Below are positions 18,950 to 47,940 of a stretch of DNA of 64,000 nt, one piece after another (position 1 is the stretch's first letter; each line of letters begins with the position of its first letter). This DNA is from Eledone cirrhosa. Its lineage: Eukaryota. The notes below the pieces were generated by a model. It saw only the letters and a list, made by a program, of their open reading frames with translations. It made no database searches and had not been told where the DNA came from. The stretch covers positions 1 to 64,000 of the forward strand of contig CAXHJY010001213.1 in NCBI GenBank assembly GCA_964016885.1, written 5' to 3'. The position numbers and the translations under genes are program-made.

Positions 18950-19840
18950 ACATATATATATACATATATATATACATACATATATATGTACATATATATA
19001 TACATACATATATATACATATATATATACATACATATATATATACATATATATATACATACATATATATATACATATATATATACATACATATATATATA
19101 CATATATATATACATACATATATATATACATATATATATATATACATATATATATACATACACACATATATATATATATATATATATATATATATATACA
19201 TATATATATATATATACATATATATATATATACATATATATATACATATATATATATACATATATATATATATACATATATATATATATATATATATATA
19301 CATATATATATATATACATATATATATACATATATATATATACATATATATATATATATATATATATACATATATATATATATACATATATATATATATA
19401 TACATATATATATATATATATACATATATATATACATATATATATATATATATATATACATACATATATATATATACATACATATATATATATATACATA
19501 CATATATATACATATATATATATATATATATATACATACATATATATACATATATATATATATACATATATATATATATATATATATACATATATATATA
19601 TATATATATATATATATATACATATATATATACATATATATATATATATACATATATATATATATACATATATATATATATACATATATATATATATATA
19701 TATATACATATATATATATATATATATATATATATATACATATATATACATATATATATATACATATATATATATACATATACATGTATATATACATATA
19801 TATATATATATATATATATATATATATATATATATATATA
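18950..19840. repeat. (TA)n/(TACA) microsatellite, ~0.9 kb
   Basis: Direct inspection. Confidence 0.95.
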
Positions 19841-19968
19841 TAGGAACAAGTAAGACCCCGACGGCTGAGCTCAAGCCGTTTCGACGGATAATTCTGACAG
19901 AGTTAGCCGTCGAAACGGCTTGAGCTCAGCCGTCGGTGTCTTGTTCCTATTACCCACTCTACTACCCT
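19840..19968. repeat. Fold-back of a 5'-truncated hammerhead (3' half only)
   Basis: Inverted repeat 19840-19950 centred on the hairpin GACGGATAATTCT/AGAGTTAGCCGTC. The right arm reads GAAA-CGGCT(loop)AGCCG-TC. Confidence 0.7.
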
Positions 19969-20038
19969 ATATATATATAGATATAGATAGGTAAATATAC
20001 ACGGGTGTGTATGATTGTGTATAGAAGATTATATTAAG

Positions 20039-20426
20039 AAGAGGAATTCCAACTTTGTCTGATTTACTCGTTTTATTTACAATCCTTTCAAATATATAAT
20101 GGTATTATAATGAAATAGTATGATAGAATATTAAATTCTAAGTGTTAATTGAACAAGTACTTTCATGCTTTCGCAATCTTCAGGTTCATAAGATGTGGTG
20201 ACAGTCGAGTTTGCAATTTTCAACTGTTGAAATTTTTACAGTTGAAAATTGCAAACTCGACTGTCACCACATATCATGAACCTGAAGATTGCGAAAGCAT
20301 GAAAGTACTTGTTCAATTAACATTTAGAATTTAATATTCTATCATACTATTTCATTATAATACCATTATATATTTTAAAGGATTGTAAATAAAACGAGTA
20401 AATCAGACAAAGTTGGAATTCCTCTT
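20039..20426. mobile_element. ~390-bp near-perfect fold-back of an HHR-bearing pLTR-like fragment (family C)
   Basis: Arms AAGAGGAATTCC...CAACTGT and ACAGTTG...GGAATTCCTCTT, centre near 20232. One HHR per arm. Confidence 0.85.
20277..20315 (+). ncRNA. Minimal type I hammerhead ribozyme (family C); mirror copy at 20150-20188 on -
   Basis: TGAAC-CTGAAGA-T TGC GAAA GCA T-GAAA-GTAC-TT-GTTCA. Stem I 5 bp, GNRA-capped stem II, palindromic stem III AGTACT. Confidence 0.8.
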
Positions 20427-20513
20427 ATTAATATATATATATATATATACATACATATATATATATATATATATACATACATATATATATATATATATAT
20501 ACATATATATACA

Positions 20514-44049: not shown

Positions 44050-45665
44050 ATATATATATATATAAAGAGAGAGAGAGAGAGAGAGAGAGAGAGAGAGAGG
44101 GAGAGAGAGGAAATAATTCCCATACATATGTTTTTCTATAATTCTGAAGAATATTTTAGAAAAAAAAAAAAAAAATAAATTGGGTAAATGCTGTGGCTGA
44201 TAATGCCTTTGAATTAATTTCTGTAAAAGATATTAATATAAAAAACAAACAAACAAATCTTATAGATTCTATTTTTTTGAAAATTATAGTTGTTTGGGGT
44301 TGTTTCAGACCACAACCCATACAATAAAGTCCTTGCTAGGTCTGACCCAGATGCGTTATGGTTAATAGTTTGTTCCAGGCTTGGCCAACAAACATGGAGT
44401 GGCTAATTTGATTCGTATCTCTTCAGTTCTTTTAGCAATACAGTTTGTTAAACGTATTATTTGTTTCCCATACGAATCTTCAGCAACCCTCCACCTGATC
44501 TTTTGTAATAGTCTTTTACATAGATTGAGCCTTTTACATTGAAGCTCCTATAGACTAACTTGGGATCCCATAGTGGCCGATGGCATCTTCTTTTTCCGTC
44601 TATTAAGGGTCTTCCCCCTATTTTATAAGCTACTTCATCGCATCTCTACGGATGAGAACACCATCCTTTACAATATTAATTCAATAAAAATTATATATTG
44701 GTTTTGGTTTAAATTAAAACGCAGAAAAATAATCATATATTATATTTGGCTTCAATGAAATAGAAACAGAAAAAGTCCAAGCAATGATACATAAATCCTT
44801 ACTGTTATACATTAGTTAATTGAAAGTACATTTAATTGTGAATAAAAAAATAAAAAAATTAACTTGATAACTTGGTAAGTCCTGGCGAAGATTCGTAACC
44901 GTCATTATTGATTTAATTATATTATTTTTTATTTAAAATAAAGTACCAGTAATGTACTGGGTAATTGCTGGTCTTGTGCCAATAGTAGAAGCAATTATTT
45001 TTTATTTAAAGGCGGTGGATTGGCAGTATTGGTAGAGCGTCGCACAACAAGCTTAGCGACATAGAGTTACGACCCTTTATGTTCTGAGTTCAAATCCCGC
45101 CGAGGTTAGTAGTGGGGTTGATTTAATCGACTTTCCCTCCCTTAAAATTGTTGGCCTTGTGTCTAAATAGAAACAATTATTTTTTATTTAAGTGCAATAA
45201 ATAAAATAATATACATAATTGTTTCTACTTTTGGCACAAGGCCAGCAATTATCTCCGTGCATTACCGTACTTTATTTTATCGATCCCGTAAGGATGAAAG
45301 GCAAAGTTAACCTCGAAGGGGACTTGAACTCAGATTGTAATTCTATGCTGCAAAGCATGGCGTCCGACCCTCTAACGATACTGCCAATAATAATAATTTG
45401 TTTTATTTCACAGAAAAAAATAATATATTTAAATGAATTTATAGATGAGATTTCAATACCTGTCGGGACCGAGGAAAGAATGAAATAATTAGTTTTAAAA
45501 TTTCAGCTGAGTAAAACTTTATATACAATTATTTTATTTAGATGAGGTGTCTCAAACATGTTGCCGGCAAACTACTTTTCTATGGCCCACAGCAGAACAA
45601 TTTTCGCGACAATTTAAGGAAAATGTTCAACGGAAAAATGTTCCCCCTATATATTATATTAATTC
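44050..45665 (+). repeat. Direct duplicate of ~31140-32745, including SINE pair
   Basis: Near-identical sequence. Confidence 0.9.
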
Positions 45666-47426
45666 AAGTATCTCACTTACTGACATGCATATTCATTTTG
45701 ATGAAAAATAAATGAAAGAATATATAAATAAATAACAGTCTATCAGCTGTGTGAAGGCACGTGGTCTTGTGGTAATCGTGATATCGTAGGTTCGATTCTT
45801 GAGCTGGGTTGTGTGTTGTGTTCTTCGCGTTGCTCCAGTGTACTCAGATGAAAACGAGTACCAGCAATAGCTGGGAGTTTAACTTTGCGATGGACTGGTG
45901 TCCTGCCCATGGTTGGGGCGGGGGGACTTGGACTCTCAGTCGCTTCACACTAGCAACGGCTCAACGTGCTGCTTGCAGCGTACGAGGGCAAGCATGCTAT
46001 CAGCTGTATTGTAGATTAACATTATAAAAGATGGAAATCACGCCCTACCCACCACCTAATTTCACTTTTCGTCAACAGTACCTCTTCCCCAGTCCTTAAA
46101 TTCCAAACCCCTGATTTAAATCTGAAAACTTGTCAAATCTAACTCTTACAATGTAAGGGAGTGGAAAATGAACAAGACATAAATTGACTGATTTCTTTTT
46201 GTGTCAGTCGACATTCAAACATTTGGTCTGTTCAATACCCGGAATGTCCTTTTCGTCTGTCAAATCGGGACGAAACCATCAAAAGCTGAGAAAGGAATCC
46301 TCCAGTCAAAAGGACTGATGGGTATCGTCAATTGTTCATTGTGGCAATATTCTCGCCATCTTGTCTGCTAGACACAGCTGAAATATGCCACCCGGCCATA
46401 CGTACATGGTTTCACCCCCCAACTCCACAGCCTTTTTTCCTCCCATTTATTTATTTATTTATCTATTTATTTATTTATTTAATTTTTTTTTTAGTTATTC
46501 ATAAATAACGATTTTGTATTTTTGCGAAAAACAAACAAAGAAAAAAAAAACAAAAAAAATAATTGAAAACTTAACATTTAAAATTTTCCATATTGTCATT
46601 ATGACGTCATAATGCTTATAACGTCTATAGAAGGTTATAAATAGATGTGATTTGAAATAATTAATCAGTCTACTGCCACGGGTAACCCGATATGGTTTGT
46701 AGTTGAGTCCGTCTTGAAGACTAGTGTGAAGTAGCAGTCATCTTCACCTTGTTTTCGACGTTTACCAGGCAGTCTTGGGTTCTTAAACACCCCCTGTAAC
46801 CTAGTTGCAAGGTGTACGGTACAGCCGCACGCGCTGTATGAACTCTTGACCAGGCTCTTCCAGGGCAGGAAACCTGGGGCTTCCGAGAAGACAAGAGATT
46901 TACTCTCGATACCAAAAAAATTCGAAAACTGGAGAAGACTGGTGAACACCAATACACAATGGCTCCCCTCGGGAGTGAAGGCCTTCGATAAGAAACGCAC
47001 ACACATGCATACATACACACACATTATTAATCTAGACATCGGTGAATATGTGTTGGAAATAGATTTTTTTCTAGCTCATATCTGCCGATGTCCAGATGAA
47101 AAATACAACTCATTTTTTATTTCTTTCAGATTCTATAAAGAGCGAATGATTCAAATGCAGCAGCAAAATGTTTGTTAATGGAATGAATAATGTTACGAAA
47201 AATTGTTTGTGTATATTGAATAAATGCATGTTTATGATATTCACTAGTTTGTTATATTTGTCATTGAAAAAATAGTAGAGAACTTTCGTTACAGCACTAT
47301 ATATATATATATATATATTAATATAGCGGCGATGAATTAGTTTATTAATTCTGGCAATATTACGCAAATATGACCCTCCCCAAGTATAACAATATATTAA
47401 TATATATATTATATATATATATATAT

Positions 47427-47600
47427 TGGCAGTATCGGTAGAGGGTCGGACGCCATGCTTTCCAGCATAGTTACGTCCCTTTACGATCTGAGTTCAAATC
47501 CCGCCGGGGTTGACTTTGCCTTTCATCCTTACGGGGGCGATAAAATAAAGTATCAGTAATGCACTGGGTAATTGCTTGCCTTGTGCCTAAAGTAGAAACA
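47427..47600 (+). mobile_element. Meta-type SINE
   Basis: TTGGCAGTATCGGTAGAGGG head, B-box, core and tail. Confidence 0.85.
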
Positions 47601-47716
47601 TATATATATATTTATATATATTTATATATATATTTATTTATATATATATATTTATATATATATATATATTTATTTATATATATATATTATTTATATATAT
47701 ATATTTATATTTATAT

Positions 47717-47940
47717 ATATTTATTAAAATAACAGATTAAAGTTTAAGCAAAGAATCGCTGCTTTTAACGGGATCTTCTGAAACTTTCAGAAGATCCCGT
47801 TAAGGGTGAAAGCAGCGATTCTTTGCTTAAACTTTAATCTGTTATTTTAATAAATATTTGCTCTACGGTTCTTATATATTTGATATATATTTTCCTTATC
47901 GAGCCCTCTTTGGATTTTTCAATTTTATTATTATTACTAT
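47717..47940. repeat. Fold-back with degenerate hammerhead (CAGAAGA core); relatives at 38684-38780 and 37878-37965
   Basis: Inverted repeat 47717-47857. The + strand reads AAACTTT-CAGAAGA-T CCC GTTAA GGG T-GAAA-GCAG..TTGC-TT-AAACTTT. Confidence 0.6.

Follow-up and report, generated by a model that had tools for sequence, protein, structure and literature searches.

Inverted arrangements in Penelope-like elements and related systems

Head-to-head placement has been described as the most frequent arrangement of Penelope-like elements (PLEs), with a tail optionally present on one of the two inverted pseudo-long terminal repeats (pLTRs), and antisense self-priming has been proposed as its origin (PMC3846280); in section 15 of PMC8557442 the origin of the tandem and inverted structures of PLEs and of the tail is presented as an open problem. 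The present analysis deals with such arrangements in the genome of Eledone cirrhosa (GCA_964016885.1; 3.0 Gb, 1,796 contigs) and starts from positions 1–64000 of a single unplaced contig, CAXHJY010001213.1 (hereafter "the window"), in which palindromic insertions of PLEs and of repeats bearing hammerhead ribozymes lie among very abundant (TA)n tracts.

Related systems provide elements of comparison. In the twin and dual priming of L1, primers are drawn from both target strands and an inverted upstream piece results, the 5' ends being joined centrally, with an internal deletion in the non-overlapping cases; L1 follows this path in a minority of cases, and its internal site varies (PMC2837659). 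The Poseidon PLE (PAc) nicks and extends both strands in vitro by target-primed reverse transcription from two start sites that bound the tail, with an uncleaved hammerhead RNA as template, and is predicted to be a dimer, although the available part of that text relates the two sites neither to inverted products nor to the pair of strands in a single event (PMC11167929). Non-LTR retrozymes are tandem arrays of type I hammerheads for which a PLE origin is proposed (PMC7229834; bioRxiv 10.64898/2026.07.22.740005), and term searches of these two texts returned neither head-to-head arrays nor paired 3' ends. Finally, nearby hammerheads on opposite strands are mentioned in PMC4209133, with no mechanism given in the part of that text at hand.

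The palindromes described here share with the inverted pLTRs of endonuclease-bearing PLEs the head-to-head 5'-truncated inverted copy, the one-sided tail and the microsatellite target (PMC3846280; PMC8557442), so that both geometry and one-sided tail are already published qualitatively. However, the published tail is optional, 30–40 bp long and attributed either to antisense self-priming or to resolution by an endonuclease, whereas here the tail follows a near-strict rule, measures 37–135 nt and is frequently accompanied by non-overlapping arms. As in L1 twin priming, two pieces of a single element lie inverted with their 5' ends joined; unlike in L1, the second start lies at a fixed site, overlap of the arms is usual, poly(A) is absent and target-site duplications are unreadable within (TA)n. 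A literature search found no twin priming of PLEs, no strict one-tail rule and no extension to short derivatives or retrozymes, while older papers on PLE structure, known here only as citations (Arkhipova 2006; Evgen'ev and Arkhipova 2005), may hold more on the asymmetry.

One tail per head-to-head pair

Two 3' ends recur in every family, one short (S) and the other located 37–135 nt further (L), the additional segment being the tail, and head-to-head pairs consist near-strictly of one L arm and one S arm. All six palindromes reported by the preliminary description, labelled here by their centres as F (5320), A (19897), B (20232), D (26346), C (43700) and E (47784), are present as head-to-head PLE-type insertions in (TA)n, and all six obey this rule. 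The preliminary description had also recognised that their 3' ends run out to TA tracts, but had overlooked the tail on exactly one arm.

In F, the tailed left arm (263–5318, minus strand; tail 263–397) is a 5'-truncated copy of a Hydra-type PLE extending from inside the open reading frame (ORF) to the far 3' end, and the tail-less right arm (5322–13299, plus strand) is a full-length unit that stops at the recurrent short end of the family, site 13299 being also the end of five other F copies. These arms are 98.1–98.8% alike and are separated by 3 inserted bases (5319–5321), the S arm being 2 kb longer at the 5' side and the L arm 135 nt longer at the 3' side. The A pair (19841–19968, centre ~19898) has its S arm on the left and its L arm, with the tail cut to 19 nt, on the right, while the B pair (19980–20432, centre ~20232) has L on the left and S on the right, with an 8-nt templated insert at the junction. 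In D, the left arm (24469–26347, minus strand) contains 6.1 monomers of a 310-bp retrozyme and has the short 3' end, and the right arm (26346–29242, plus strand) contains 9.3 monomers and ends ~40 nt further along the monomer; the two arms are 99.8–100% identical and have 2 nt of microhomology at the junction. The C pair (43568–43925, centre ~43698; tail ~43840–43925) and the E pair (47717–47940, centre ~47785; tail ~47858–47940) both have S on the left and L on the right. A seventh case, belonging to family C, is found at 55241–55466, where an S arm on the minus strand, a 20-nt templated insert and a tail-only L arm on the plus strand follow one another, the arms having no overlap.

The rule extends well beyond the window. 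Genome-wide, 720 of the 749 head-to-head loci of family A are strictly L+S, with the tail on the left in 372 and on the right in 348. Typing of the arms by tail k-mers, with omission of loci fetched twice, of one likely segmental duplicate and of secondary pairs in the A set, yielded L+S in 103/106 pairs over all sets and in 29/30 pairs of the two sets that are unbiased with respect to the partner (p = 3e-8), and the same composition was read by eye in 12 of the 13 E pairs spaced 5 kb or less. In a 0.8 Mb sample, made up of 16 blocks of 50 kb that were taken from large contigs at round coordinates, 55 palindromes were identified de novo: in 35 of them TA directly borders one side and a tail followed by TA the other, while three have TA on both sides, six have TA on one side only and 11 have neither. 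A second D locus has a similar pair of 3' ends with the sides swapped compared to the D palindrome of the window. Among 78 metagenome loci with Hydra-like ORFs, two are informative for end asymmetry (L267 and L275, from other organisms), and both have a one-sided tail in flanks that are not TA. A symmetric palindrome of ~3 kb at G000:C2:80001326-80004165, in which nested elements and TA tracts are doubled in both arms, stands outside the simple rule.

Orientation of neighbouring copies

Hammerheads were called with a purpose-made descriptor. Among the 62 motifs of the 0.8 Mb sample, same-family neighbours within 6 kb comprise 16 head-to-head pairs, two same-strand pairs and a single tail-to-tail pair, which itself encloses a head-to-head pair. 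In the case of family E (first 100 matches listed), neighbours within 5 kb are head-to-head 13 times and tail-to-tail twice (p = 0.007). For family A, the 749 head-to-head loci are to be set against 18 in tail-to-tail position at a distance of up to 30 bp, almost all of which have a TA spacer, the distance windows of the two sets being different. A short interspersed nuclear element (SINE) that appears to resemble those of cephalopods, used as a control in the same 0.8 Mb, shows four head-to-head and six tail-to-tail pairs. Random orientation, named beforehand by the preliminary description as the outcome that would speak against a common geometry, is not what is seen.

Within the window, the outward sense of the arms is supported in six of six palindromes, by the ORF and the long-stem-II hammerheads in F, by type I hammerheads on opposite strands in B (20183, minus strand; 20282, plus strand), in C (43663, minus strand; 43737, plus strand) and in D, and by homology in E. 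Qualifications apply to this earlier claim: each A arm contains only the 3' half of a hammerhead, a degenerate core being found upstream in longer copies, and the hammerhead core of E is a variant (CAGAAGA), the sense of the motif being assigned by homology to motif-bearing copies. A tail-to-tail pair with 55-bp arms around a TA tract, found at 47965–48298, is probably made of two insertions into one tract.

Proposed integration pathway

The account that is regarded here as probable is that each palindrome is a single PLE integration in (TA)n, in which both target strands would serve as primers for cDNA synthesis, at two fixed sites of one RNA, and the ends would then be joined. It is from the one-tail rule that we infer two start sites of the reverse transcriptase (RT), L and S, on one RNA. 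In such a pathway a GIY-YIG endonuclease would nick both strands of a two-fold symmetric TA tract and two RT active sites, probably those of a dimer, would occupy the two fixed start sites of one RNA, their positioning being possibly helped by 3–7 nt of UA pairing. Initiation at the distal site would yield the tailed arm and initiation 40–135 nt upstream the tail-less arm. Non-overlapping arms would result if the distal RT stopped inside the tail, as in L1 twin priming, and overlapping arms if it passed the proximal site, displacing the first cDNA; each of the two cDNAs may extend as far as a fixed 5' stop, which could be the transcript start or a structure-induced stop. The cDNA 3' ends would finally be joined head-to-head through 0–5 nt of microhomology or short templated inserts, and the short families and the retrozyme would use the PLE enzymes in trans.

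Several observations weigh against this account. Twenty-nine of the 749 family A loci depart from strict L+S; L+L pairs are found at L156 and B203, and S+S pairs at L146, C1:88915626, L162 and window positions 38678–38778; many copies, furthermore, are unpaired (49 arms compared to 21 pairs in the sample).

In a broader version, which is put forward tentatively and with rather less conviction than the account of the palindromes themselves, obligate twin priming would be the normal mode of integration of endonuclease-bearing PLEs: one dimer on one RNA would prime both nicked strands and the cDNAs would be joined, no ordinary RT-made second strand being produced, so that inverted repeats, one-sided tails, apparently solo copies (with a partner of near-zero length), head-to-head retrozyme arrays and palindromes numbering in the order of 100,000 would all be its outcomes.

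One RNA or two

The arms of one pair differ by 2.6–3.4% in families A, B and C, compared to 5.4–6.1% for shuffled pairs, and share non-majority letters 3–10 times as often as shuffled arms; against this, family E has no shared-variant signal (3.6 vs 3.9%). Genome-wide, exact pattern searches yielded two mixed A/E junctions, to which L104 is to be added, even though the E motif is matched 25,513 times. Since the arms share rare variants and the only family pair tested (A/E) is mixed only twice, a single RNA template for both arms appears likelier than two. Nevertheless, the mixed-family junctions are evidence that a template switch or the use of two RNAs can happen, and the shared variants are also compatible with two RNAs from one source locus or with later conversion between arms. 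The mixed head-to-head junctions are those of L161, L162 and L104, L161 joining a short A arm to a tailed E arm.

The best surviving alternative is that the two nicked strands prime on separate RNA molecules, an asymmetric enzyme dimer assigning the distal start to one subunit and the proximal start to the other, a concept published for L1 as dual priming (PMC2837659). Fully overlapping arms would then arise without strand displacement, and mixed A/E junctions such as L104 do exist; however, an extra rule would be needed for the 96% of L+S pairs, and the ratio of two mixed to 749 same-family junctions for the tested pair, as well as the rare variants common to both arms, render this possibility unlikely. 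A recurring C/T difference between B arms, considered as a sign that two templates are the rule, turned out to be an artefact of query selection: with the loci ordered by position, 47 are C/C, two T/T and one discordant (n = 50).

Probably two cDNAs rather than a folded one

As to whether the two arms of the single-RNA pathway derive from separate priming events, the evidence comes from their extents. Out of 20 sampled L+S pairs, the S arm reaches further 5' in nine, the L arm in five, and the two are equal in six, with the qualification that the excess of S-longer pairs, a point on the opposite side, is partly due to detection bias; their existence counts more than their share, because detection favours them. 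In six of the 20 the L arm consists of tail only and has no overlap with S, which may correspond to the internal deletion of the L1 type, the remaining pairs being overlapping; over all sets, 12 non-overlapping pairs were found, that of 55241–55466 included. The fact that the arms are often not nested, and in 6/20 cases do not overlap, favours two priming events over a fold-back.

The 5' ends point in the same direction. The preliminary description had 5'-truncated ends meeting in the middle; they do meet there, but the short families have 5' ends clustered at family-specific points, i.e., mostly fixed stops rather than random truncations. Of 19 C pairs, 15 retain an arm that extends to the clustered 5' point, and this is often the S arm, next to a shortened L arm, a finding that makes a later central deletion improbable as the cause of the cut L arms. 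Among the B matches listed, 23/50 loci have one shared length, and short B copies start ~30 nt below CCAAT and TATA motifs. The presence of these motifs upstream in B, and of a TATA-like motif in A, suggests that the clustered 5' ends are putative transcription starts, a start of this kind being not evident for C and E.

The junctions themselves were compared with single references and used only qualitatively, counts of microhomology being unreliable because of subfamily mismatches. A letter-by-letter reading of eight B pairs showed palindromes whose spacer is 1 nt and whose microhomology is 2 nt, and since hairpin loops need ~3 nt these junctions are too tight for a hairpin primer; other junctions are blunt, overlap by 1–5 nt or contain short templated inserts.

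A fold-back, in which one cDNA (or an antisense RNA, as in PMC3846280) copies itself and the asymmetry stems from the stop of the copy and a later central deletion, would account for identical arms, for the rarity of mixed junctions and for a tail on one arm; it suits the D palindrome of the window, whose L arm contains S, with a loop of 55 nt, and whose tandem monomers are compatible with it, and also the five of 20 pairs with a longer L arm. Self-copying, on the other hand, implies that the tailed arm should contain the other, and this is contradicted by the 12 non-overlapping pairs, by the many pairs in which S is the longer arm and the clustered 5' ends are intact, by the opposite extensions of the two F arms and by the 1-nt-spacer junctions. 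Thus, while the suggestion of the preliminary description that both DNA ends in (TA)n act as primers is retained, the fold-back that it offered as an equal alternative (in the sample, nine of 20 pairs are S-longer, six of these nine being non-overlapping) is now considered improbable.

TA pairing and the possible role of the endonuclease

Initiation from both nicked strands would be aided by pairing with the target. Outside family A, 38 of 44 anchored 3' ends overlap TA by at least 3 nt, compared to an expected 14–19%, even if, as a point on the debit side, these 44 ends are not independent, since they fall on only ~8 recurrent sites. These recurrent 3' end sites lie at TA-like motifs of the element. 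Also unfavourable to a role of pairing are the two 3' ends of D, which have less than 3 nt of TA overlap, and the initiation of Poseidon without homology to the target (PMC11167929). None of the 5' or 3' ends examined is located at the hammerhead cleavage site, in keeping with the uncleaved hammerhead RNA template of Poseidon (PMC11167929).

Still less probable than self-copying is an endonuclease-independent repair, as the wording of the preliminary description would imply, in which PLE cDNA is captured at the two ends of breaks that arise spontaneously in (TA)n cruciforms: the TA microhomology at the ends and the templated junction inserts, which resemble end-joining, are what it would produce, but the SINE control lacks this geometry, the fixed paired start sites point to an enzyme-defined register and the one-sided tails of L267 and L275 are in non-TA flanks. 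Chimeras of amplification or assembly are hardly credible, despite the near-identity of the D arms, the unplaced status of the window contig and the finding that, of four sequencing runs compared with 19835–20440, three contain the families but no read piece spans the stretch, given that arms differ by 2.6–3.6% on average, that one F arm alone contains an insertion, that hundreds of loci are on chromosome-scale contigs and that, as regards the asymmetry itself, a fold-back chimera can neither yield a one-sided tail nor join non-overlapping pieces.

Identity of the elements

The same anatomy is found in autonomous PLEs, in short hammerhead derivatives and in a retrozyme array, which bears out the earlier view of a common signature linking the autonomous PLE to the hammerhead elements. 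The intact F ORF (5496–7937, plus strand; 813 amino acids) has RWR, DKT and the CxCx5C, CxxC and CxH motifs, in letters CNCRNKANC, CRLC and CNH, with no CCHH, and equivalents exist in L143, a second autonomous PLE, whose RT region shares ~47% identity with that of F and whose terminal repeat is family E. By motif and alignment F and this E parent are Hydra-type PLEs, with a predicted RT, along with a C-terminal GIY-YIG-type endonuclease, in one ORF; at a cut-off of 0.001, Pfam gave no match for the F ORF and no significant match for the parent PLE ORFs. The Hydra clade as described has RW[KR], DKT, CxCx5C and CxxC/CxH motifs, a hammerhead in the terminal repeat and (TA)n as target (PMC8557442), and the last two traits are present in both F and E, with a variant core in the latter. 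The size generally given for the clade (<3 kb; PMC8557442), which is descriptive rather than a strict requirement, is exceeded by the E unit (3.26 kb) and by the F unit (~8 kb), the latter having a microsatellite-like 3' region of 5.3 kb and being placed in the clade by motifs. Of 118 homologues, a single one bore a name, and this was an unrelated one. This ~5.3-kb region (7938–13299) also contains repeats of 112–155 bp and travels with the element. One 29-mer of E has 25,513 exact matches in the genome.

Family B corresponds to the terminal repeat of L156, a Neptune-type PLE whose ORF has, on the basis of motifs, the DKG, the CX2-5CxxC linker and the C-terminal GIY-YIG of the Neptune clade. 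The palindromes at 20232 and 47784, which the preliminary description had ranked among non-coding elements, are in fact terminal repeats of autonomous PLEs. A and C are short hammerhead families and D is a tandem non-LTR retrozyme, with 15 type I hammerhead motifs at 310-bp spacing and no ORF, in line with the published arrays (PMC7229834; bioRxiv 10.64898/2026.07.22.740005); a coding parent was found for none of A, C and D. The possibility that A and B are miniature inverted-repeat transposable elements (MITEs) or fixed palindromes was discarded, the termini being asymmetric in 720/749 A loci, the centres variable and B endowed with a PLE parent.

The F hammerhead-like element (13092–13245, plus strand) has a type I fold with a long stem II and a GUU triplet (fold z -7.0), and a mirror copy at ~452–605 on the minus strand. 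A U occupies position 17 in the B, E and F hammerheads, and the conservation of this U across many copies, together with that of the CAGAAGA core of E, suggests that these successful elements carry ribozymes predicted to be poorly cleaving or inactive. Among the 150 of 254 matches listed, an Rfam scan of the window gave only below-threshold microRNA matches to TA repeats and no hammerhead.

Other features of the window

The insertion present only in the F right arm (10172–11052, ~0.9 kb) is a later event that comprises a 3' piece of an RTE-like element and a 3' piece of another retroelement. An intact RTE-like ORF of 1205 amino acids, of the long interspersed nuclear element (LINE) class, occupies 13797–17411 on the minus strand, and its 3' end, together with a short TA-bounded piece, recurs inverted within that insertion, the piece of the other retroelement lying in the (TAA)n run. 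A third, more diverged F copy (70–90%) is at 20512–24075 (minus strand), tailed, 5'-truncated against a TA tract and with no visible partner. The 3' fragment of another Hydra-type PLE (29557–30888) contains the endonuclease end and a hammerhead-like motif at 30739, its 5' end being located at a TA tract.

Two related retroelement-like 3' ORF fragments, 83% alike and inverted, lie at 59586–60635 and 36066–36939, the longer having no Pfam match. Segmental duplicates, 76–96% alike, are formed by 38308–40045 and 46091–48607 in inverted and by 31151–32754 and 44080–45673 in direct orientation, family E pairs being located at matching places in both inverted copies. A further inverted pair (54490–56520, 78% alike) encloses the family C pair of 55241–55466 and has a hammerhead motif at 54855 (minus strand), with a likely counterpart in the right arm.

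Implications

Through the one-tail rule, the pair of start sites known from in vitro work is linked to the two strands of a single event, and an existing assay receives a yes/no prediction. As a footprint, it can serve to assign retrozymes and short hammerhead repeats to PLE enzymes independently of sequence similarity. In the sample there are ~44 such palindromes per Mb, which by rough extrapolation would amount to 100,000 or more genome-wide; they could be misannotated as MITEs or microRNA hairpins and represent a large potential source of double-stranded RNA and of hairpin-prone DNA.

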